Shown here: positions 2,032 to 13,146 of the stretch, one piece after another
Layout of the letters: each line of letters starts with the position of its first letter
How positions within the stretch are numbered: the stretch's first letter is position 1
Assembly: GCF_023371205.1 (NCBI RefSeq)
Contig: NZ_JAMCCO010000001.1
Coordinates: forward strand, 34,662 to 58,661
Source: Parvivirga hydrogeniphila
Lineage (GTDB): Bacteria; Actinomycetota; Coriobacteriia; Anaerosomatales; Anaerosomataceae
DNA: 24,000 nucleotides
Direction of reading: 5' to 3'
Notes under the pieces: model-generated
Databases searched by the model: none
The model's input: the letters and a program-made list of their open reading frames with translations, nothing else
What the model was told of the DNA's origin: nothing
Program-made: the position numbers and the translations under genes

Positions 2032-2919
2032 TCACAGAGCACAGGCACCGCTCCACGCGCAGAGGTTGTCGCGCAGCACGTCAGGCAGAGCGGCCACGAG
2101 GTCGCGGGCCCGCATCGCCGGCGTAGCGCCCATGACCCGACCCGCCTCGCGGTTCGCGCGCGCCGCGCACACGGCGGCGTCCAGCGTCGGGAACCCCGCC
2201 GCCAAGAATGCGGAGGCCAGCCCTGCAAGCGTGTCGCCCGTCCCGCCTATCGCCTCGAGGGCCGGGACCAGGGGCTCAGCGACGGTCGCCACGACTTCGC
2301 CTTGCTCGGCTATGTGGTCGATCTCACCCTTGACGATGAGCACGCGCGCTGCGCCGCCCCGCTCGTGCGCCAGGCCGCTGAGCTTCACGGGGTCGAACCC
2401 GTCCGTGCCGAAGAGATAGTGCGAGACGTATGCAGGGTGTGTGGCCGCAGGGTCTGCCAGGAAGCCGAGCTCGCCGACGTCCGGCGTCATCAGCTCGAAG
2501 CGAGACGCGAGCCCCGCCGCCTTCGCGGCGTACATCCCCCCAGCGTCCGCGACCAAGAGCGCTCCAGGCGCCTCGCGCTCGACCGCGCCGACCGCCTCGC
2601 GCATGAGGGCCATGATCGGCTGCAGGTAGTGGAACGCGACGACAGACGGCCGCGCCTGCGCGAGCGCTGCTGGCAGAGCATTGAAGACTGCGCGCGTGCC
2701 GTCGCCGCGTCCGATGTCGCCCGCGATGAGCGCCCAGGGCGCGGAAGTCCCGAGGTAGCGCGACGCTGCGCACGCCGCCCCGAGCATCGCGGCCGTGCCC
2801 TGGGCATGCGGGACGGCTGCATCGCCCACGCGAAGCGAACCGTCGGTTTCGAGGAACGCTGGCCCGAGCACCAGCGGACCGCCTTCGACCGGATACGTCG
2901 CGACCACGAGAAGCGTCAT
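2032..2919 (-). CDS. Carbohydrate-kinase-fold protein, NAD(P)HX-dehydratase-like (YjeF C-terminal / NnrD-like); last gene of the yedE operon
   Basis: Track ORF 2032..2982, with the start placed at ATG 2919 (MTLLVVATYP), which overlaps the upstream stop as ATGA. Motifs seen by eye match B. subtilis YxkO/NnrD-type proteins: GTAAMLGAACAASRYLG, VADAGGMY, LMTPDVGELGFL (compare TPHPGEF), VLIVKGEIDHI (compare VLKG..T.I) and AIGGTGDTLAGLASAFL (compare GGTGDTLTG). Confidence 0.8.
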   Translation of the reverse strand: MTLLVVATYPVEGGPLVLGPAFLETDGSLRVGDAAVPHAQGTAAMLGAACAASRYLGTSAPWALIAGDIGRGDGTRAVFNALPAALAQARPSVVAFHYLQPIMALMREAVGAVEREAPGALLVADAGGMYAAKAAGLASRFELMTPDVGELGFLADPAATHPAYVSHYLFGTDGFDPVKLSGLAHERGGAARVLIVKGEIDHIAEQGEVVATVAEPLVPALEAIGGTGDTLAGLASAFLAAGFPTLDAAVCAARANREAGRVMGATPAMRARDLVAALPDVLRDNLCAWSGACAL

Positions 2920-3464
2920 GCCGGCTCCACCCCTAGAAGAGCGCACGCCTCTTCGTACGCGCGGTCGAGCATCAGCCCGCACAGCGTATACCCCAGCGAC
3001 TTCGGTCGCGGAGCCTCGTCCAAGCGCCTGCCGACCAGCTCCACGTTGAGGTACGGGATGTCAGGGCAGCCGCCGCCGGAGGTGTTGACGATCACCAGCG
3101 TGTTCTTGTCGACGACGATCTTCATGTTGCCCGCACGCACCATGAGGTGGTCTCCGAAGTCCACAGTCGTCACGAGGTCGACAGGTGCGGCCGACGAGCC
3201 TGGATCGTCGACCCAGCCCCGCACGGGCACGCCTGACTCGCGCAGCAGACGCTCGGCGCCCACGTGCTCGACGCGCGGCACCGCGACGGCGAGATCGCAG
3301 CCGGCCCGCAGGTGGTGCGGGGGCGCAACGAGCGCGTAGTCGTACCCCGCTCTTTTCAAGACGCGCTCCGCCCACAACGCGTCCGGGACTTGGTCGAACA
3401 GGAAGAGCCCGGACGCCTCGTGGGCGTCCGGGGCCTCCCTGCGGTCTTTCTTCCGGAAGAGCAT
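2916..3464 (-). CDS. DUF3343 (putative Se/S-carrier)-like domain fused to an uncharacterised Cys-containing C-terminal domain (182 aa)
   Basis: Inner part of track ORF 2916..3647. The ATG at 3464 (MLFRKKDRRE) overlaps the yedF-like stop (TGATG). The N-terminal 80 aa (GLFLFDQVPDALWAERVLKRAGYDYALVAPPHHLRAGCDLAVAV) look like DUF3343. I do not recognise the C-terminal roughly 90 aa (VDFGDHLMVRAGNMKIVVDKNTLVIVNTSGGGCPDIPYLNVEL...LCGLMLDRAYEEAC). Confidence 0.7.
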   Translation of the reverse strand: MLFRKKDRREAPDAHEASGLFLFDQVPDALWAERVLKRAGYDYALVAPPHHLRAGCDLAVAVPRVEHVGAERLLRESGVPVRGWVDDPGSSAAPVDLVTTVDFGDHLMVRAGNMKIVVDKNTLVIVNTSGGGCPDIPYLNVELVGRRLDEAPRPKSLGYTLCGLMLDRAYEEACALLGVEPA

Positions 3465-3676
3465 CACGACGACTTCTTGCCGATGATCGTCCAGCCCTCG
3501 GCAGTCTCCTCGATCGCTACGTCGTACGAGCTGTCCTTGAGCAGGTTCACGACATTCGCCTTCGCCGTCCCGCTGTCCACGAGCACGGTGATCGCCTCCG
3601 GCTCTGCCTCGAGCGCCTTCTTCGTGCGCATCAGCGGGACCGGGCACGAGAATCCTCTGACATCGACCTCGACCAT
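3464..3676 (-). CDS. yedF: TusA/SirA/YedF-like sulfur(selenium)-transfer protein (70 aa)
   Basis: Inner part of track ORF 3464..3901, starting at ATG 3676 with GGGAGGAGG 6 nt upstream. The peptide MVEVDVRGFSCPVPLMRTKKALEAEPEAITVLVDSGTAKANVVNLL carries the TusA-family CPxP active-site motif. Confidence 0.85.
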   Translation of the reverse strand: MVEVDVRGFSCPVPLMRTKKALEAEPEAITVLVDSGTAKANVVNLLKDSSYDVAIEETAEGWTIIGKKSS

Positions 3677-3690
3677 GTGCGCCTCCTCCC

Positions 3691-4953
3691 TCACGCCGTC
3701 CGCTCGCGCTTGATGAGCGCGATGGCGACGAGAACGACTGCCATGACAGCGAGCGCCGGCCATCCGTACTGCGACAGCCCCTTCGGTGAGGACGCGATGC
3801 CGTACCAGTGCGCGAACAGCGCGCCTCCCATCATGCCCAGGACGGCCGCGAACGCGTCGGCATCGCCCTCGCCGGACATGATGACCTGCCGGAACGGGCA
3901 TCCACCGAGCATGACAGCAGCGAGGCCGGCCACAGTCATCGCCGCGAAGTTGCCGAGCGCGTCGGTGTGCGCGATAGGCTGGTTCTCGAAGCCGAGATTG
4001 AACTGGCCGAGCACGAGGTTGGCAACGAACGCGCCGACGAGCAGGCCGATCACGCCGAAGAGCAGGTCGAAGCGCCGCACCAGCACGACATCACGGATGC
4101 CGCCGATGGAGCAGAAGCGGCTTCGCTGCGCCACGACGCCGAGGACGAGACCGGCAACGAGCGCGATGTACAGCGGTGCACGCTTGCCGCCTGGCTGCGG
4201 CTTGGCCTTCGCCACTGCCTCCGCAGACGCGACGACTGCGCCATCGGCACCTACGACCGAGCCGTCTTCGGCAAGCGTGGCACCTTCCGGCTTGAGAATC
4301 GTCGCCGGTTTGCCATCAGGGCCTTTCAAGAAGACGGCGGGGGGCGTCGTGCCCGTCGCGAACGCCTTTGCCTTGGTGACGGTGAAGCCCATCGGAGCGG
4401 AGCCCGAGGACGATGCGAGCGCGAGAGCCAGCAGCACGATTGCGAGCACGGGTCCAAGCCATCCCACGGGCGCAGGCAGCTTCACGGACCTACCGAGGTT
4501 GTAGCCGCTCTTCAAGAACAGAGCGCCCACGGTGACCCCGACGATGATCCCGAGGATGCCGTAGACGGCGTTGAGGTCGCCGCCGGCCAGCCGCAGCCAC
4601 GCCCTGACGGTGCAGCCCAAGAAGATGAGCGCCGAGGTCATGAAGATGAATCCGAGCACGAATCGAAGCGGCGTGCTGGATCCGCCACGAGGCCGGAACT
4701 CCTTCGTGGCGAGGGAGGCGGCCATCGCACCCAGCATCAGACCGACGATCTCCGGCCGGATGTAGGCGACCGCCCCCATGTTGGCCTTGGTCCCGCCGAA
4801 GAAGCCGACCGTATCGCGCAGGAAGCACGCGATGCACAGACCCATGTTCCCCGGGTTGCCCTGGCTCACGAGCCAGGCCGCGACGACGCCGATGAACGCC
4901 CCGGCCGCGCCGAAGACCCACGCAGACGGCCCTACCATGCGCCTTCCAGACAT
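3691..4953 (-). CDS. yedE: YedE/YeeE-family membrane transporter (putative selenium/thiosulfate-type uptake protein)
   Basis: Track ORF 3691..4953. Hallmark sequence QGNPGNMGLCIACFLRDTVGFFGG, plus conserved Cys motifs in the second half (RSRFCSIGGIRD, GGCPFRQV) and many TM segments. An alternative start at ATG 4938 (MVGPSAW) is also preceded by GGAAGG. There is a hydrophilic insertion of roughly 80 aa at residues 181-259. Confidence 0.88.
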   Translation of the reverse strand: MSGRRMVGPSAWVFGAAGAFIGVVAAWLVSQGNPGNMGLCIACFLRDTVGFFGGTKANMGAVAYIRPEIVGLMLGAMAASLATKEFRPRGGSSTPLRFVLGFIFMTSALIFLGCTVRAWLRLAGGDLNAVYGILGIIVGVTVGALFLKSGYNLGRSVKLPAPVGWLGPVLAIVLLALALASSSGSAPMGFTVTKAKAFATGTTPPAVFLKGPDGKPATILKPEGATLAEDGSVVGADGAVVASAEAVAKAKPQPGGKRAPLYIALVAGLVLGVVAQRSRFCSIGGIRDVVLVRRFDLLFGVIGLLVGAFVANLVLGQFNLGFENQPIAHTDALGNFAAMTVAGLAAVMLGGCPFRQVIMSGEGDADAFAAVLGMMGGALFAHWYGIASSPKGLSQYGWPALAVMAVVLVAIALIKRERTA

Positions 4954-4991: not shown

Positions 4992-5021
4992 ATGCTATCT
5001 ATAAATGTGATGAATAGTCAA
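4992..5021 (-). promoter_or_regulatory. Candidate promoter of the yedE operon in an AT-rich island
   Basis: The minus strand reads TTGACT (5021-5016), an 18 nt spacer, then TAGCAT (4997-4992). This sits within the only clearly AT-rich stretch in this part of the window (about 4990-5025), starting right after the stop of the upstream ASKHA gene and about 40 nt before the yedE ATG. Confidence 0.35.
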
Positions 5022-5024
5022 CAA

Positions 5025-6620
5025 TCAGCGCGGGTTCTTCGGCGGGAAGTCGAGCGCCCGGACGAAAGCGCCTTGGAACTGCGGTGCCGATGCGAGGTCC
5101 AGCGTGCGTATGCTCGCGGCCACGCGGTCCGCCTCGCGTCGCGCGGCGCGCGAGACGCACGCGGCACGAGCGCCCTCGAGCGCCGCATTCCCGACGAACG
5201 AGAACCGCGTCTCGAGGCCGTGGGGCACCATCCCGATGCGCACCAGCGAGGACGCGTCTGCGTGCAGACCGAAGCCGCCGGCCACCACCACGCGCTCCAC
5301 CTGCTCCGCTCTGATGCCGGCCTCGTCGAGCAGAAGCTCGATCGCCGCCCGTATGGCGCCCTTCGCGAGCTGGACGGCCCGCACGTCTTTCTGGGTGAGG
5401 ACGACCGGACGGCCGGCGTCCACCACGAAGGCCCGGACGCCGTCGCGCTCGATCACTCGCTCATCGAGCGGACCGCCCGGCGCTTGAAGCCTTCCGCTCG
5501 GGTCGAGCACGCCCGCGTCCAGCAGAGCCGCAAGCAGATCGAGCGTCCCTGAGCCGCACAACCCGAGCGGCGGCACGCCGCCGATGACGTCGAGCTCGAG
5601 CCCATCTTCCGTCCGACGCACGCGTTCGATGGCTCCTGGCGCGGCGCGCATGCCGCTCGTGGTGCCCGCCCCCTCCAGCGCCGGACCTGCCGCAGCAGAC
5701 GCCGCGAGAAGGCCGGAACCGGTCGCCAGCACGACCTCCGCATTCGTCCCGAGGTCGATGAAGAGCGCGGGCCCTTCGCTGAGCGCGAAGCGCGTCGCGA
5801 CGATGCCGGCGACGACGTCCGCGCCGATGAACGCCGAGGCGCAGGGAAGCGCGTGCACCGAGACGTGCTCGAGCCCCGCCAGCCCGAGCTCAGCCCCCGA
5901 TGCGTCGCGCGCCGCCAACGGCACCCCTTCGTACGGCGCGGCGCCGAGCGGGCCCACGTCGTCGCCGAGGAAGATGCCGCGCATCGCGGTGTTCCCGCAC
6001 ATCACGAGCTCCGAGACCGCAGAGGCCGGAGCCCCGGCGTCGGCCATCACGGCGTTCGCGAGGCGCACGACTTGCGCGACGAGCGGCGCTCGGAGCGCCT
6101 CGAGCCCTTCGTGCTGGACGGCAGCGACGCGCGACATGACGTCGGCGCCCCACGGGAACTGCGCATTCAGCATGCTCCGCGTGGCCTCGACGTCGCCGGT
6201 GGATAAATCGACCAGCGCGAGCACGACCGTTGTGGTGCCGATGTCGAACGCGAGCCCGAGCGACCCGGCCCCCAGGTGCTTTCGGCTGTCCGGCTCCCAG
6301 AAAGATGCCTCCGTCGCGTGCGCGACCGCCCGCACGGGCGCGACGTCCGCATCGTGCACGCGCACGTCTCCGAGCACCCGCGCCCGGCACGCCAGACGAT
6401 GCCCGCTCGCGACCGCATCGACGCCGAGCACGGCGAGCTCCTCCTCGGCGGGCGCCGACAGCGCTCCTTCTGCGCGGACCACGCACCTGCCGCACGTCCC
6501 TACGCCGCTGCACTGCGCATCGATAGGCACGCCTGCCGCCCGGGCCGCCGCGAGGAGCGTGGCGTGCGGCTCGACGCACACGTGCACACCGTGACGGGGG
6601 AACTCGACTCGTGGCGACAA
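5025..6620 (-). CDS. 2Fe-2S ferredoxin-domain / ASKHA ATPase protein (DUF4445; RACo-like reductive activator of corrinoid enzymes)
   Basis: Track ORF 5025..6620. The N-terminus has a plant-type ferredoxin Cys pattern (CSGVGTCGRCVV ... ACRA). ASKHA motifs are LAFDIGTTTVVLALVD, FIDLGTNAEVVL, GLCGSG and VVAGGFG. The start codon is TTG at 6620 with AGAGG about 9 nt upstream; the exact start is uncertain. Confidence 0.85.
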   Translation of the reverse strand: MSPRVEFPRHGVHVCVEPHATLLAAARAAGVPIDAQCSGVGTCGRCVVRAEGALSAPAEEELAVLGVDAVASGHRLACRARVLGDVRVHDADVAPVRAVAHATEASFWEPDSRKHLGAGSLGLAFDIGTTTVVLALVDLSTGDVEATRSMLNAQFPWGADVMSRVAAVQHEGLEALRAPLVAQVVRLANAVMADAGAPASAVSELVMCGNTAMRGIFLGDDVGPLGAAPYEGVPLAARDASGAELGLAGLEHVSVHALPCASAFIGADVVAGIVATRFALSEGPALFIDLGTNAEVVLATGSGLLAASAAAGPALEGAGTTSGMRAAPGAIERVRRTEDGLELDVIGGVPPLGLCGSGTLDLLAALLDAGVLDPSGRLQAPGGPLDERVIERDGVRAFVVDAGRPVVLTQKDVRAVQLAKGAIRAAIELLLDEAGIRAEQVERVVVAGGFGLHADASSLVRIGMVPHGLETRFSFVGNAALEGARAACVSRAARREADRVAASIRTLDLASAPQFQGAFVRALDFPPKNPR

Positions 6621-6756: not shown

Positions 6757-9228
6757 ATGGATACGGTGGTGACCCCCGACAAGGCCCGGACCCCGCTTCT
6801 CGTTCAGAGGGCGACGCCGCCCGCGTGGCTCGTGTGGAGCGTCGTCGCAGCATTCCTCGTCACGCTCATCGGGGGAGCCTTCTTACTCAAGGCAGAATCC
6901 GAGCAAGAGCGCGCCTCCGTAGTGCGAGAGCTCCAGACCACGGCTGCGTACAAGGTGTCGGAACTCCTCCAGTGGCTCGACATGCACAGGCAGGCGCTGA
7001 CCGTTCTAGGGAGCGCGAAGCCCTTCACGTCCGCCGTCGCCGCGATCACATCAGGCAGCGCAACGGCGGCAGACGAGGCTCTCGTGAAAGACCACCTGGC
7101 GTCGTTCAAAGTCCGATACGGGTGCACCGACGCCCGGATCACCGATGCTGAGGGTCGTCCGATCCTTGCACCGTATGCCGTAGACGCCCATGTGGCGCCG
7201 TCGCTTCGGGATGCGATCGAGCGCGCCGTGGCTTCGCGGGAAGTGGCGTTCTCGACCATCCATCGCTCCTCGCCTGATGAGCCGCCGCACGTCGATTTCG
7301 TGGTACCCCTCCCCGAGTATTCGGCCGGACGACCAACGGCGCTCCTCGTTGCGAGCGTACGCGCAGACGACTTCCTGTATCCGCTGATCGGCACGTGGCC
7401 GACCGCATCCGAAAGCGCAGAGACCCTGCTTCTCGAGCGCGACGGTGACGCGGCACAGATACTCACACCGCTCCGTCACGCGAGCAATCCGCCGCTTTCT
7501 AAGTCGATCGACCGCGCGTCCGGGTCTGTGGAGGCCCTCGCTGCATGGGGGGCGAGCGGGATCCTTGAAGGACGCGACTACCGCGGCGTCCGGGTCATCG
7601 CCTTCGCGGAGAAGCTGGAAGGCACGCCGTGGGTGCTCCTCGCAAAGGTAGACCGGGCGGAGGCGCTGGCCGCCTGGCGGTCCGAGGAGGCCGCCATGCT
7701 CCTCGTCATCGCCCTGCTCGAGATCACGATAGTGGGCAGCAGCGTGGGACTGTGGTCCCGGTGGCTGGCAGCGAGGCGGAGAGTCGACGCGCAGCGGCTC
7801 GCGACGGTGCTGGAGACTCTGCGATCCAGGCCCAGCTCGACCCACGATCTGCTGGTGCGCCTCCTCCGCGCAGTCATGGACAGAACGGGAAGCCCGGCCG
7901 GTGCGGTGTACCGGTACGACGCGGAGCGCGACCGTATGCGCCCCGAGGTCCGGCTGAGCGACAGCATCGTCCAGCCCGGACCGCCGGATGTGCGCTCGAT
8001 CGACTGGATCCCCACCGCAGAGATCGGCGCCTGGGCAGAACCGCTCGCGTCAGGTGAGCCGCTCATCATCAATAGGGACGCGGACCGGGCGCTTGAAGCG
8101 CGCGGTCACCCTCGGCACCACCTTCCGCTTTCCACCTTCCTCGCGGTGCCGGTCGTTGTGGACGGAACGCCGGTCGCAGTGGCCGGGCTTGCCAACAGGG
8201 CTTCCGGTTACGACGAGCAGGACGCGGTCGAGCTCGCTCTGGTGTTCGAGGCCGCCTGGCACGAGGTCGAGCGGCTTCGTGCGCTCGAGGAGCTGGAGGC
8301 GCTCAACGCCGAGCTCGAGCAGCGCGTCCAAGAGCGCACCGAAGAGCTTGAGACCGCCAACGAGGAACTGCAGGCGCAGGCAGAGGAGCTCGCCGCGTCG
8401 AACGAGGAGATCGCTGCCGCCAACGAGGAGCTGCTCGCCCAGACCGAGCAGCTCAACGCTGCAAACCGCGAGCTGGAAGCGCAGGCAGAGCAGCTCGAAG
8501 AGCAGGCGCGGGAACTCGAGCAGCGCACCCGCGAGCTCGCCGAATCGAATGAGGCCAAGACCCGCTTCTTGCGCACGATGAGCCACGAGCTTCGCACCCC
8601 GCTCAACTCCATCATCGGATTCACGGAACTGCTGCTCCAGGGCCTTGCCGGCCCGCTCAACGACGAGCAGCGCAAGCAGCTCTCGATGGTGAACGCATCG
8701 GGCCACCACCTGCTCACGCTCGTGAACGACCTGCTGGACCTTTCGCGTATCGAGGCCGGCGCGGTCGTCTTCTCACGCGAGCCCATCGACGTCGCCGAGC
8801 TCGTGCGCGACGTGACAGAGACGATTCGGCCAGCAGCTGAAACGAAGGGCCTCGCCCTCGCCTGCGAGGTCCCCGATCCCGTGCCGCCGCTCACTTCAGA
8901 CAAGACCCGGGTCCGGCAGATCCTGCTCAACCTGCTCACGAACGCCGTCAAGTTCACCGACACCGGCTCTGTGTCCGTGATCGTCTCCCGCGACGGCCAC
9001 CGGACCGTCTCGTTCACCGTGAAGGACACCGGCCCCGGCATCCCGAAGGAGCGCCTCGGCGACATCTTCCAGGACTTCGTGCGCCTGCAGGACGGCGGCG
9101 CGCGCGAAGGGACCGGCCTGGGTCTCGCGATAGCCAAGCAGCTCGCGTGCGCCCTCGGAGGGTCCCTTACCGTCAAGAGCACCGTGGGCAAGGGCTCCGC
9201 GTTCACGCTCACGCTGCCCCAGGAGTGA
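6757..9228 (+). CDS. Sensor histidine kinase: TM, extracytoplasmic Cache-like domain, TM, GAF, long coiled coil, HisKA, HATPase_c
   Basis: Track ORF 6757..9228. TM segments lie near residues 22-44 and 313-335. A GAF-like region spans about 350-500. The H-box is RFLRTMSHELRTPLNSIIGF (His610). The N/G boxes are QILLNLLTNAVKFT, VKDTGPGIP and GTGLGLAIAK. Confidence 0.92.
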   Translation: MDTVVTPDKARTPLLVQRATPPAWLVWSVVAAFLVTLIGGAFLLKAESEQERASVVRELQTTAAYKVSELLQWLDMHRQALTVLGSAKPFTSAVAAITSGSATAADEALVKDHLASFKVRYGCTDARITDAEGRPILAPYAVDAHVAPSLRDAIERAVASREVAFSTIHRSSPDEPPHVDFVVPLPEYSAGRPTALLVASVRADDFLYPLIGTWPTASESAETLLLERDGDAAQILTPLRHASNPPLSKSIDRASGSVEALAAWGASGILEGRDYRGVRVIAFAEKLEGTPWVLLAKVDRAEALAAWRSEEAAMLLVIALLEITIVGSSVGLWSRWLAARRRVDAQRLATVLETLRSRPSSTHDLLVRLLRAVMDRTGSPAGAVYRYDAERDRMRPEVRLSDSIVQPGPPDVRSIDWIPTAEIGAWAEPLASGEPLIINRDADRALEARGHPRHHLPLSTFLAVPVVVDGTPVAVAGLANRASGYDEQDAVELALVFEAAWHEVERLRALEELEALNAELEQRVQERTEELETANEELQAQAEELAASNEEIAAANEELLAQTEQLNAANRELEAQAEQLEEQARELEQRTRELAESNEAKTRFLRTMSHELRTPLNSIIGFTELLLQGLAGPLNDEQRKQLSMVNASGHHLLTLVNDLLDLSRIEAGAVVFSREPIDVAELVRDVTETIRPAAETKGLALACEVPDPVPPLTSDKTRVRQILLNLLTNAVKFTDTGSVSVIVSRDGHRTVSFTVKDTGPGIPKERLGDIFQDFVRLQDGGAREGTGLGLAIAKQLACALGGSLTVKSTVGKGSAFTLTLPQE
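8341..8556 (+). repeat. Ten consecutive 21-nt (heptad) repeats encoding EEL-x3-N/A-type units inside the kinase coiled coil
   Basis: The translation reads EELETAN EELQAQA EELAASN EEIAAAN EELLAQT EQLNAAN RELEAQA EQLEEQA RELEQRT RELAESN, immediately before the HisKA H-box. Confidence 0.8.
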
Positions 9229-9257: not shown

Positions 9258-11618
9258 CTACCGGACGCTCGGCTTGAACCGCTTCAGCATGAGCGAGCTC
9301 GTCACCACGCTGACGCTCGAGAGCGCCATCGCAGCGCCTGCGATCTCGGGCCGCAGCAGACCCAGTGCCGCTACCGGAATGCCGAGCGTGTTGTACCCCA
9401 GCGCCCAGACGAAGTTCTGCCGGATCTTCCGCATCGTCGCCTTGGAAAGCTCGAAGGCTGACACCACGTCGCGCAGGTCGTTTCGGACCAGCACCACATC
9501 GCCCGCTTCGAGCGCGACGTCAGTTCCGGCCCCCATCGCGATGCCCACGTCCGCTTGCGCCAGAGCGGGGGTGTCGTTGATGCCGTCCCCGACCATCGCC
9601 ACCACGCGGCCTTCGTCCTGCAGCCTGGCGACCTCGCTCGCCTTGCGCTCCGGCATGACCTCGGCGAGCACACGCTTCGGGTCGATGCCTGCCTGCTCGG
9701 CGATCGCGCGGGCAGTGCGAGCGTTGTCACCGGTGATCATGTAGACCTCGCGGCCTGAGCTTTCGAGCAACCGGACGACCTCGCGGCTCTCCGGCTTGAT
9801 GGTGTCCGCGACAGCGATCAGCCCTGCCAGGCGTCCGTCGACCGCCACGAGAAGGACGGTCTCGCCGCTGTCCTCGAACGCCTCCACGCTCGCCTCAGCC
9901 CGCGAAAGGTCGATGCCCTCCTCTGCGAGCAGCTTCCGCGTGCCGCACACGACGCGCACGCCCTCCACGGAGCCAGCCACCCCCCGCCCTGGGACAGCCT
10001 CGAACGAGTCCGGCTTGTCGAGAGCAAGCCCACGCGAGCGCGCTCGTTCCACCACCGCATCGGCCAAGGGGTGTTCGGAGGCGCGCTCCAATGACGCAGC
10101 GAGCCGAAGCAGCTCGTCGTCGCTGATGCCGAATGCGAGCGTCCGGGTGACCTGCGGCTTGCCGAGCGTGAGAGTGCCCGTCTTGTCGAAGACGACCGCG
10201 TCCACCTTCTCCAAGCGCTCGAGCGCCTCGGCGGTCTTGAACAGCACCCCGAGCTCGGCGCCCTTCCCGGTGCCGACCATGATGGCGGTCGGTGTCGCCA
10301 GCCCCAAGGCGCACGGGCACGCGATGACGACGACCGCTGTGCCCGCAAGGAGCGCCTTGACGAACGGCGTGACCTCCGCGTACAGGCCGGGGTCCGCGAA
10401 GCGCGGCACGATCAGCAGCCACACCAGGAAGGTCATCGCCGCGGCAGCGAGCACCGCAGGCACGAAGATCGCGGAGATGCGGTCGGCGAACCGCTGCACG
10501 GGCGCTTTCGAGCCTTGCGCCTGCTCCACGAGGCGCACGATCTGCGCAAGCATCGTGTCACGACCGACCTTGGTGGCACGCATCGTGAACGACCCCAGCT
10601 TGTTCACCGTGGCGCCGATCACCGCGTCCCCGGGGTTCTTCTCGACGGGGATCGATTCGCCAGTGAGCATCGACTCGTCCACTGACGAACGCCCCTCCAC
10701 GACCACGCCGTCCACCGGGACCTTCTCGCCCGGCCGCACCACGATGAGGTCGCCGGGGACGACCTGCTCGATCGGCAGGTCGACTTCCGCGCCGTCTCGC
10801 ACGACCCTTGCGGTCTTGGCCTGAAGACCCATCAGTTTGCGGATGGCATTGCCCGTCCGGCCCTTCGCCCGCGCTTCGAGGAGCTTCCCGAGCAGCACGA
10901 AGGTGATGAGCAGCGCTGCGGTCTCGAAGAACACTGGCTCGTTCTCGAGCGCTGGCACGAACGTCGCAGCCGTCGAGTAGAGGTAGGCCGCGCTCGTGCC
11001 GATAGCGATGAGCGTGTCCATGTTGCCGGTCCGCTGCTTGAGCGCGTGCCAGAAGCCGCGGTAGAACTGCCGGCCGGCGATGAGCTGGACCGGGGTCGCG
11101 AGGACGAAGCCCAGGTACTTGGCCACCATCATGGGGTCCCACATGCCGCCGAATACGCGTTCGAGCAGCGCGGCCAGCGCTCTGGGGACGGTCTCCATGA
11201 ACGGCGGCACCATGGAGATCAAGAACAGCGGCACCGAGAGCGCTGCCGAGAACACCAACAACCGCTGCTGGCGGCGCTCGTGCTCTCGCTGGGCCGCGCG
11301 CTGGACGTCTTCTGCTTCGGATACCGCCCCTGGCGCCGAGGACGCCTCTTCCAAGGGCGCGGCGCCGTACCCGGCCCGCTCCACCGCCTCGACGATCTCG
11401 CGCACGGCCACGACGGCCGGGTCGAACGACGCGGTCATCTTCTCGCTCGCCAGGTTGACGTTCACGGCCTCGACGCCCGGCAGTCTGCTCACCGTCTTCT
11501 CTATCACGGCAGCGCACGCGGCACAGGTCATCCCGGTGAGGGCGAATGCGGCCTCCTCAGCCACCTGCTCCTTTTCGCTCGTCGCATCAGATCTCGGCTC
11601 TTCCACCGGTTCCTCCAT
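9258..11618 (-). CDS. copA: Copper-translocating P1B-type ATPase
   Basis: Track ORF 9258..11618. It has one HMA domain ([13 protein letters not shown]), the TM CPC motif ([12 protein letters not shown]), DKTGTLT, SEHPLA and [10 protein letters not shown]. The annotated ATG at 11618 has no good RBS. GTG at 11606 is preceded by GGAGGA at 4 nt and may be the true start. Confidence 0.95.
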
Positions 11619-11645
11619 TCACAGGTGGGCTCTCGCCCACTGATC

Positions 11646-13076
11646 TCACTGAACCACTATCTTCCCGAACACCATGCGCATCCCGCAGTTGAACCCGATC
11701 TCGCCCGGCTCCAACGCTGGAAGCGTGATGGTCACGGGCCCCTCGGTCAGGTCGCGAGCGATACCGAGATCCGGTATCTCGACCACCGAAAGACAGCCCG
11801 TGGACTGCGTGAAGGTGATCTCGGCCGGCACGCCGCGCTTGAGCACCACGATGTCGGGCACGTAGCGTCCCGACGAGGTGTCGATGGTGATGCGCTGCAC
11901 TCCGGCGTCTATCGTGGCCGTGCCGGTCACCGACGGCCCGCTCGCGCCGCCTCCGCAGCACGCGCACGAGTACGACGAGCCGGCTGGCGAGCCGGCCGCG
12001 TCCGCCGTCACGGACGTCCGGCCGCCGTTGCCGCCGCGCGACGCAGCTCCGCCCGTCGGAACCGCACGGATCTCGCCGCTCATCATGCCCATCCCGCACG
12101 TGAGGGTGTACGTCCCTTCGGGCAGCGCGGGGAGGTCGACCGTCGTGGTGCTGAAGGCGGCGAGGTCCACCAGCACCCCGGCCTGCGGCACTGCGAGCTG
12201 GGCCGAGCATGCGTTGTCCTCTCGCCGGTCGACGACGAGCCGCACCGGCCTGCCTGCAGGCACCTCGATGGTCTGGGGCTTGAACTGCACGTTCTCGATC
12301 ACCAGCGACACTTCGGCCACACCGTCGGCTGCGACTGCGTAGGTGCTGCTCGACGAGCTCGGTCCGGTCACCGCGCTCGCGATTCGCGAGAACGACACCG
12401 GCGAGCCGATCAGATTGAGCCCTCGGTCCAGCATCACGAGCCCGAGCACCGCGACCAGCACGGCGGCGAACGCCATCATCCTGCGCTTGAACTGCGCGGA
12501 GAGCAGCCCTGATGCCGCTCCGAAGCCGAGCATCAGGGGCATCGTTCCCAGTCCGAAGCCGAGCATCGCAAGCGCGCCGCCCGCCGCCGAGCCCGCACCT
12601 GCGGCCGCGATCTGCGCCGAGAGCAGCGGACCGCACGGCATGAGCCCCGTCATCAGCCCGAACACCGCCGGCGTGGCCAGGCTCGTCTCGGTCCCACCGC
12701 TCCTGCTGGTGCGACGGAGCCGGCCGAGCGCGTTCATGAGCGGTCTGGGCATGCGCGGCACGAGCCGGGTCAACGCCGGGAACTTGCCCGTCATCTGGAG
12801 ACCGAGCAACACCATGATGATCCCGGCCGCGACGGTGACCCACCCGCGGAAGCGGCCGAGCCCCAACAGCCCTCCGATGGAGCCCATCAGAAGGCCGACC
12901 AGGACGTAGCTGGTCAAGCGTGCAGATTGGTACACGACGTGAGGTACGAGGCGTCCCACGCCGCTCGCGCCGTCGGCGCCCCGCACAGCATAGGTGAGCA
13001 CGAGCGGACCGCACATCGCCACGCAGTGCACGCTCGTGGCGAGTCCGATGCCCACCATGGGCCAGAACAGATTCAT
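11646..13076 (-). CDS. DsbD_2-type membrane domain fused to two cupredoxin-like (Cupredoxin_1-type) domains; metal-handling partner of CopA
   Basis: Track ORF 11646..13115. I place the start at ATG 13076 (MNLFWPMVGIG) because of AGAGGAGGA 4 nt upstream. The membrane half carries VHCVAMCGP and LMPCGPL. The two C-terminal beta domains end in TLTCGMGMMSGEIRAV and GFNCGMRMVFGKIVV. The linker contains SCACCGGG. Confidence 0.85.
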   Translation of the reverse strand: MNLFWPMVGIGLATSVHCVAMCGPLVLTYAVRGADGASGVGRLVPHVVYQSARLTSYVLVGLLMGSIGGLLGLGRFRGWVTVAAGIIMVLLGLQMTGKFPALTRLVPRMPRPLMNALGRLRRTSRSGGTETSLATPAVFGLMTGLMPCGPLLSAQIAAAGAGSAAGGALAMLGFGLGTMPLMLGFGAASGLLSAQFKRRMMAFAAVLVAVLGLVMLDRGLNLIGSPVSFSRIASAVTGPSSSSSTYAVAADGVAEVSLVIENVQFKPQTIEVPAGRPVRLVVDRREDNACSAQLAVPQAGVLVDLAAFSTTTVDLPALPEGTYTLTCGMGMMSGEIRAVPTGGAASRGGNGGRTSVTADAAGSPAGSSYSCACCGGGASGPSVTGTATIDAGVQRITIDTSSGRYVPDIVVLKRGVPAEITFTQSTGCLSVVEIPDLGIARDLTEGPVTITLPALEPGEIGFNCGMRMVFGKIVVQ

Positions 13077-13146
13077 GCTTCCTCCTCTGGAAAGAGACAG
13101 GCCGTATTCCCGCACTCACGAAGCGCGGCACGCAGAGGAGGAGCTA

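Follow-up and report, generated by a model that had tools for sequence, protein, structure and literature searches.

We describe a four-gene operon in Parvivirga hydrogeniphila (Coriobacteriia), in which a gene for a putative YedE-family channel and a small TusA-like yedF gene are followed by genes for a DUF3343-DUF8182 protein and a kinase-fold protein, which we call the carrier and the kinase. It lies in a window of 24,000 nucleotides (nt), the whole stretch of DNA that was analysed. To the known YeeE/YedE plus TusA-type uptake of chalcogens the module adds two parts, a DUF3343-DUF8182 carrier and a ribokinase-fold enzyme dedicated to it. We give a probability of about 0.6 to the reading that it serves selenium scavenging and hand-off, with a channel, a cysteine relay and an ATP-dependent trapping step that would feed SelD. 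The genes, read from the sequence and the list of open reading frames (ORFs), are the following.

3691-4953, minus strand: yedE, 420 amino acids (aa)
3464-3676, minus strand: yedF (TusA-like), 70 aa
2916-3464, minus strand: DUF3343-DUF8182 carrier gene, 182 aa
2032-2919, minus strand: kinase-fold gene, 295 aa

The first-pass annotation of this DNA, made by a model from the letters alone, had placed the four genes at 2032-4953 on the minus strand, and the sequence and ORF list agree with it. The yedE stop codon (TGA, 3693-3691) is followed by a spacer of 14 nt (3690-3677), not by the 12 nt given in that annotation, and then by the yedF ATG at 3676. The yedF and carrier genes meet in a stop/start overlap, TGATG at 3466-3462, and the carrier and kinase genes in a start/stop overlap, ATGA at 2919-2916, both as it had described. 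Start codons were set from the 5' ends of homologue alignments; the mechanical ORFs are longer for three of the genes (GTG/ATG). We saw no terminator-like site within the operon on its coding strand.

A scan with the kinase alignment, taking one genome per species, gave 54 loci, and the window proteins were searched in these loci by tblastn. Outside the scan, contig look-ups added Desulfonauticus and the loci L055-L057 (Methanopyrus, Thermodesulfobacterium and a Methanococcus). The bacterial lineages of the scan are Coriobacteriia and other Actinomycetota, a metagenome-assembled genome (MAG) of Eubacteriales, a gammaproteobacterium, Nostoc, Calothrix, and Desulfobacterales and other Deltaproteobacteria; Methanothermococcus is the archaeal lineage within it. 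Scan and look-ups together spread the module over at least six bacterial phyla, with members in Actinomycetota, Bacillota, Cyanobacteriota, Gammaproteobacteria, Desulfobacterota and Thermodesulfobacteriota, and over the archaeal Methanococcales and Methanopyrus. The four loci from the look-ups have the same core as the rest.

The carrier gene lies immediately 5' of the kinase gene in every locus that is intact at the contig ends, and the kinase gene comes directly after the carrier gene in 51 of the 52 scorable loci. The junction between the two is an overlap in 46 of these 52 and measures at most 20 nt in 51, and the linkage is kept down to 34–45% protein identity, in cyanobacteria, proteobacteria and archaea. 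Further upstream, yedF overlaps the carrier gene in 33 of 40 loci, and the yedE-yedF spacer has a median of 14 nt across loci. Four-nucleotide gene overlaps are frequent in operons. What goes beyond chance is the conservation of the overlaps, rather than the overlaps themselves, and the "obligate stoichiometric coupling" that had been read into them at first is overstated, as overlapping genes show less than that.

YedE is present in nearly all loci and YedF in 41–43; the operons of the cyanobacteria, the gammaproteobacterium and the Methanococcales have no YedF. The conserved core is YedE, the DUF3343-DUF8182 carrier and the kinase, and YedF is dispensable. The arrangement proposed in the first-pass annotation is kept far outside the close relatives, with YedE, carrier and kinase found across phyla and in archaea, and YedF absent from several lineages. 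One Desulfobacterales locus (L049) has the order carrier, kinase, YedE-N, YedE-C, YedF, and this reordering implies that the carrier-kinase pair moves as a unit. At another locus, in a deltaproteobacterial MAG (L052, 8845-14813), an inserted gene for a major facilitator superfamily transporter separates yedE from the carrier gene, and after the kinase gene come a MoaD-like gene, an unassigned gene of 189 aa, a glutamate-dehydrogenase-like gene and a gene for a MoeB/ThiF-type adenylyltransferase.

Two kinds of gene fusion were found. YedE is in frame with DUF3343-DUF8182 in Nostoc, Calothrix and one gammaproteobacterium, in ORFs of 543–588 aa. In five cluster representatives of 514–588 aa it is the kinase that is joined to DUF3343-DUF8182 through a linker, with all of the family motifs intact. 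The two fusion types speak for direct contact of the carrier with the channel in the one case and with the kinase in the other.

The Calothrix fusion stands in an unusual place. In that genome (L048, 1479-12365) the YedE-carrier fusion, the kinase gene and a tetratricopeptide-repeat gene lie between the genes for the small subunit and the molybdenum subunit of a xanthine-dehydrogenase-like enzyme. A duplicate of 34 aa of the N-terminus of the molybdenum subunit is found at 2911-3012, and because of this duplicate the arrangement looks like an insertion. A plasmid of Nostoc carneum (L050, 7822-10482) has a decayed copy with insertion sequence elements and fragments of xanthine dehydrogenase genes. 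We had considered a functional link to molybdenum enzymes of the xanthine dehydrogenase type, and we reduced it to a lead, as the arrangement is insertion-like and limited to one lineage.

The family assignments were checked against profile models. YedE scored 383.8 bits against TIGR04112 (equivalog cutoff 200), in two stretches that match both halves of the model, and it also matches PF04143, the YeeE/YedE family. Against the TsuA model, NF041049, it reached 25.2 bits where the cutoff is 645. Five cysteines, C40 and C43 (GxCxxC), C114 (GC), C281 (RxxC..GG.R) and C352 (GGCPxR), are the same in all of 12 diverse homologues, among which are fused proteins and split ones, the archaeal split forms too. 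The two homologous halves of the protein are separated by an insert of some 75 aa in which Ala, Gly, Lys and Pro abound (aa ~185-262; window 4170-4400). This insert is clade-specific, and the proteobacterial, cyanobacterial and archaeal homologues are without it.

YedF matched the TusA family PF01206 with 56.9 bits (cutoff 28.6) over positions 2–70 of the 70 in the model. The roughly 194-aa two-domain model TIGR03527 gave 51.9 bits, below its cutoff of 110, and aligned at positions 1–65 of 194. The motif is C11-P-V-P (CPVP), and C11 is invariant in 43 homologues.

For the carrier, PF11823 (DUF3343/Se_S_carrier) gave 47.6 bits with a cutoff of 25, over aa 20-84, and the C-terminal domain at about aa 95-180 is DUF8182 (PF26554). 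The PF26554 match comes from precomputed annotation, of the identical protein P0121 and of all 120 listed homologues; our local copy of Pfam gave none. Invariant across phyla are C56 (GCDLA), N113-M-K, S129-G-G-G-C133-P-D and C162 (TLC), and the three cysteines, C56, C133 and C162, are unchanged in 55–57 homologues, with 55 for C56. In the AlphaFold2 (AF2) model, which has a predicted local distance difference test score (pLDDT) of 83, C133 comes after a Gly-rich loop, between a beta strand and a helix, and C162 is at the start of the last long helix. We infer from the model that this geometry may be of the kind typical of anion-binding cysteines with a low pKa. A Foldseek search with the model returned no PDB match at E ≤ 0.001, and we found no selenocysteine (Sec; in-frame TGA) in place of the invariant cysteines in any locus.

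The kinase-fold protein belongs to the same superfamily as NnrD and appears to be something else. PF01256 (Carb_kinase) matched with 44.9 bits (cutoff 27) over aa 113-271 only, and the NnrD model TIGR00196 (yjeF_cterm) with 47.5 bits, where the cutoff is 129.85, over positions 128-275 only. The AF2 model (pLDDT 92) has a ribokinase-like fold. Its best fold match in the PDB is 3rss, the NnrD domain of TM0922, and this match is modest (query TM-score, TMq, 0.61; root-mean-square deviation, rmsd, 5 A); ThiD, PdxK and ThiM come next, and all four, NnrD included, have a probability of 1.00. When a sequence profile search of the PDB was done with the kinase, the alignment was limited to about 90 C-terminal residues. 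A profile search of 1.84 billion representatives found 58 clusters at E ≤ 1e-30 and 582 at E ≤ 1e-3. Judged from these sequence comparisons, the kinase-fold proteins are a distinct small family apart from true NnrD.

Some of the residues that are invariant across phyla in this family are shared with the superfamily (P146DxxE, K197GxxD, G225-G-T-G-D229 and N256R), and others are specific to the family (H97Y, ADAGGMYA at 124-131 and H161PxY); D68xG and LAD (154-156) are further invariant motifs. No cysteine of the kinase is invariant across phyla. At the C-terminus there is a motif, C287-x-W-x-G-x-C293 (window 2035-2061), in 35–37 homologues of the Coriobacteriia type, and it is missing in other phyla. 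We rejected this CxWxGxC motif as a catalytic thiol pair, as it is restricted to the Coriobacteriia clade, in which C287 and C293 may be a clade-specific thiol pair. In more than 1000 database entries, a protein of the kinase family bears the name "NAD(P)H-hydrate dehydratase", "sugar kinase" or "hydroxymethylpyrimidine kinase", probably by mis-annotation. The public name of the window kinase is likewise "NAD(P)H-hydrate dehydratase", and that of the carrier is "DUF3343 domain-containing protein". The family member in Methanocaldococcus jannaschii is MJ1337 (Q58733), whose database status is uncharacterised.

Against these results, the family calls of the first-pass annotation fared as follows. 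Its YedE call passed TIGR04112. YedF does have the TusA/CPxP domain, but with only 70 aa it is missing the C-terminal part of TIGR03527. The protein called a "DUF3343 fusion" has the DUF3343 domain by PF11823, and its partner can now be named as DUF8182. The description "NnrD-like" holds for the Carb_kinase/ribokinase-like superfamily, but the score on the NnrD model speaks against an NnrD orthologue.

The surroundings of the module point to selenium. selD was found within 8 kb in nine of the 54 loci, identified by TIGR00476 with 362.6 bits. In two Actinomycetota MAGs it comes after the kinase gene, on the same strand (L024, 8971-9906; L026, 3410-4453). The selD of L026 begins 27 nt past the stop codon of the kinase gene, and an in-frame TGA, in "SGAGUACK", marks its product as a Sec-type SelD. 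In Methanothermococcus, the genes for both subunits of the archaeal SelU are found some 5 kb away from the module. All named archaeal homologues belong to Methanocaldococcus (including MJ1337), Methanotorris, Methanococcus, Methanothermococcus and Methanopyrus. Among archaea, Methanococcales and Methanopyrus are the orders known to make selenoproteins. The Methanopyrus module abuts genes for a NiFeSe hydrogenase.

There is also expression evidence. When Methanococcus maripaludis JJ is starved of selenium, yedE goes up by 5.3–5.4 log2-fold and the adjacent DUF3343 gene (MMJJ_12990) by 2.3 (PMC11097638 supplement). The gene order there, TctA, an OB-fold protein, YedE, YedE and DUF3343, is the same as in L057, our locus from a Methanococcus, which continues with the kinase gene. 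With selD and selU genes nearby, archaeal homologues in Sec-using archaea only and induction under starvation, the tie to selenium that the annotation had drawn from the gene families is upheld on local evidence. Of the three findings that the annotation had named as refuting it, none was made, the third as judged from these local data.

We propose that the module would work in four steps. YedE would first pass a selenium species through the membrane, with no obvious energy coupling. Cytoplasmic cysteine carriers, YedF with C11 and DUF3343 with C56, would then capture the selenium covalently, and it would be handed on to a site at C133 and C162 of DUF8182. Finally, the kinase-fold enzyme in complex with the carrier may spend ATP or ADP on a phosphoryl transfer to the carrier-bound selenium. 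Such a transfer would make the capture irreversible, as in group translocation, and would give a product that SelD can use. The most conservative chemistry would follow that of NnrD, where a hydroxyl is phosphorylated so as to leave, and which can serve as a model for the proposed ATP step: an Se-OH group would be O-phosphorylated and the phosphate lost on attack by a thiol, so that ATP would drive formation of an S-Se bond. The transported species, the relay order and the chemistry of the ATP step we infer. Some genomes carry selD in this operon as well, which makes it most likely that the kinase works ahead of SelD and does not stand in for it.

In a bolder version, the kinase would transfer phosphoryl groups from ATP onto an inorganic or protein-bound selenium species, either Se-OH or a cysteine perselenide of DUF8182, a type of reaction that would be new to the superfamily. 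YedE, carrier and kinase would then make up the first dedicated high-affinity uptake of selenium by group translocation, and the module would be the missing physiological donor of selenium for SelD. This version is tentative and we would not bet on it.

A number of points weigh against selenium scavenging and hand-off. To our knowledge, the characterised ribokinase-like enzymes all phosphorylate carbon-bound hydroxyls of small molecules, and we know of none that acts on protein-bound or inorganic selenium or sulfur. selD is near the module in just the nine of 54 loci, and L052 has sulfur-carrier genes (MoaD-like and MoeB/ThiF) beside it. Organisms that make no use of selenium can have DUF3343 and TusA too (PMC5322559). 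In M. maripaludis, deletion of yedE was without a clear selenium phenotype (PMC11097638). For a kinase in M. maripaludis we found no evidence: MMJJ_12980 is not in the differential-expression table of that study (PMC11097638), and among the named archaeal kinase homologues there is no match from this species.

The first alternative concerns the kinase. It may bind a nucleotide and catalyse nothing on selenium, acting as a gate that senses ATP/ADP, as a scaffold for YedE and the carrier, or as a kinase for a small-molecule co-substrate that would react with selenium afterwards. This would fit with its recognisable motifs, which are limited to the nucleotide-binding and general catalytic ones, with the invariant H97Y, ADAGGMYA and H161PxY, which have no known meaning, and with the absence of a cysteine that is invariant across phyla. 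It would also fit with the small alcohols on which ribokinase-fold enzymes act, as in the fold matches ThiD, PdxK and ThiM. However, the catalytic aspartate of GGTGD, the KG and the NR are strictly invariant from archaea to actinobacteria, which exceeds the needs of binding, and the fusion with the carrier suggests that the carrier is the substrate or the acceptor of the product, and not some remote member of the pathway. We judge this explanation to be unlikely.

The second alternative keeps the architecture and changes the cargo to sulfur. Thiosulfate, sulfane sulfur or persulfide would be imported and relayed for thio-cofactors or tRNA thiolation, with no more than a side role for selenium. 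YedE is a homologue of TsuA/YeeE, which transports thiosulfate (a weak match to NF041049; PMC11582611), a split YedE1E2 has been reported as an importer of zero-valent sulfur (PMC10812762), TusA and DUF3343 are without selenium specificity (PMC5322559), and the MoaD-like and MoeB/ThiF genes of L052 lie downstream of the module. On the other side, YedE scored 383.8 bits on the selenium-associated TIGR04112 (cutoff 200) and 25 bits on TsuA (cutoff 645), and selD is near the module in nine loci. The named archaeal homologues are confined to Sec-using orders although sulfur metabolism is universal, and it is starvation for selenium that induces the yedE and DUF3343 genes of M. maripaludis. A sulfur cargo seems to us quite improbable.

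The last alternative, that the fourth gene is an ordinary NAD(P)HX dehydratase (NnrD) whose position after selenium genes is functionally meaningless, can be dismissed as very improbable: the public names "NAD(P)H-hydrate dehydratase" and "sugar kinase", the PF01256 match and the TM0922 NnrD domain as best fold match are in its favor, but the protein fails the equivalog cutoff (47.5 against 129.85 bits), matches Pfam over aa 113-271 only and the PDB profile over about 90 C-terminal residues, has a modest fold match (TMq 0.61, rmsd 5 A) and belongs to a small, separate family (58 clusters at E ≤ 1e-30) that adjoins the carrier, in bacteria and archaea alike, in 51 of 52 loci and is fused to it in five clusters.

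The selenium reading of the module builds on published work. Lin et al. predicted YedE, YedF and DUF3343 in 2015 as selenium genes associated with selD (PMC5322559), and proposed roles as transporter, redox/carrier protein and chaperone. The same families occur in the same order in Slackia heliotrinireducens (Shel_25130-25110: YedE, SirA/TusA-like, DUF3343). The DUF3343 proteins there are small, with 80–100 aa, and there is neither a DUF8182 domain nor a kinase partner; the word "kinase" appears once, for PSTK. Here, in contrast, DUF3343-DUF8182 plus kinase is the tightest conserved unit.

The TsuA/TsuB system is close in its general build, with a YeeE/YedE-family channel that has essential cysteines and an adjacent small TusA-like partner. 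Uptake by TsuA (YeeE) requires that cytoplasmic partner, TsuB (YeeD), and is powered by cytoplasmic capture, with no ATPase or ion gradient (PMC11582611). Unlike the module described here, TsuA/TsuB is without a DUF3343-DUF8182 carrier and without a nucleotide-dependent enzyme. NnrD shares with the kinase the ribokinase-like fold and the TPxxGE, KG and GxGD motifs, but the N-terminal 110 residues of the kinase are unmatched, it has no YjeF_N epimerase partner, and it is paired with, or fused to, a cysteine carrier. SelD also activates selenium with ATP and is in the same operon in some genomes, but it has an unrelated PurM-like fold, and it co-occurs with the kinase, neither one replacing the other.

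According to a 2026 review (PMC13188914), a specific high-affinity selenium transport system of prokaryotes is still unidentified. Our literature searches found no mention of the kinase family or of DUF8182, and MJ1337 gave no matches; later selenium reviews have nothing on a kinase partner or a second carrier domain, and neither do the papers on selenoneine and on M. maripaludis. The claim that a kinase is not part of the published yedE/yedF picture held in these searches.

The module adds two uncharacterised, strictly co-inherited parts to the YedE picture, a carrier with three invariant cysteines and an ATP-binding ribokinase-fold enzyme. Since fusions physically tie each part to its neighbor, they are clear targets in tractable Methanococcus and in Desulfovibrio-type bacteria. 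The carrier and kinase may also help to explain why deletion of yedE alone was without a phenotype. With this module, the capture of trace selenium and its delivery to SelD in prokaryotes become a directly testable question.

Three other features in and near the operon are listed here.

3682-3690, minus strand: Shine-Dalgarno-like GGGAGGAGG, read from the sequence, which opens the 14-nt yedE-yedF spacer
4992-5021, minus strand: promoter-like TTGACT-18-TAGCAT, a consensus match only, in the 71-nt gap 5' of yedE
5025-6620, minus strand: RACo-like gene, a possible accessory, 531 aa, with Fer2, RACo_middle and RACo_C_ter

The consensus scan found two promoter-like sites in the region where 0.3 were expected. 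The RACo-like gene is directly 5' of yedE in the window. Of the 54 loci, 18 share this position (among L001-L025 and L054), and in L018 the gene is 4.7 kb upstream; these loci are all of the Coriobacteriia type. Its product has a 2Fe-2S domain and an ASKHA ATPase domain, and scored 320.7 on NF040756 (AcsV; cutoff 800) and 125 on TIGR04270 (cutoff 500). No gene for a corrinoid protein was found near it within the window. The RACo-like gene has a promoter-like gap of its own, which makes its membership in the module uncertain.

Methanopyrus and Thermodesulfobacterium (L055, 3991-6283; L056, 1562-3595) have HGD-D plus a BcrAD_BadFG activase beside the module instead. Neighbors of the HGD-D/BcrAD_BadFG type are likewise in the Slackia STRING table of Lin et al. 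(PMC5322559). The RACo-like and HGD-D/BcrAD_BadFG proteins would be ATP-driven donors of low-potential electrons, a hint that one step of the pathway is a reduction.

The rest of the window is without selenium genes, and selD is absent from its 24 kb. Rfam and tRNA scans of the window were empty, with no riboswitch, no match of the selenocysteine insertion sequence (SECIS) type and no tRNA-Sec. The other genes in it encode a copper ATPase, a DsbD-cupredoxin protein, a short-chain dehydrogenase/reductase, PurB and sensor kinases, and also PurC according to the ORF reading. At 9258-13115 on the minus strand, the gene for an HMA-domain heavy-metal P-type ATPase adjoins one for a DsbD-like membrane protein with two cupredoxin-like domains. 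These two look like a copper-handling pair that is unrelated to the selenium module. Divergent from the RACo-like gene, at 6757-9228 on the plus strand, is the gene for a large sensor histidine kinase with a long coiled coil of repeated "EEL..NEEL" units.

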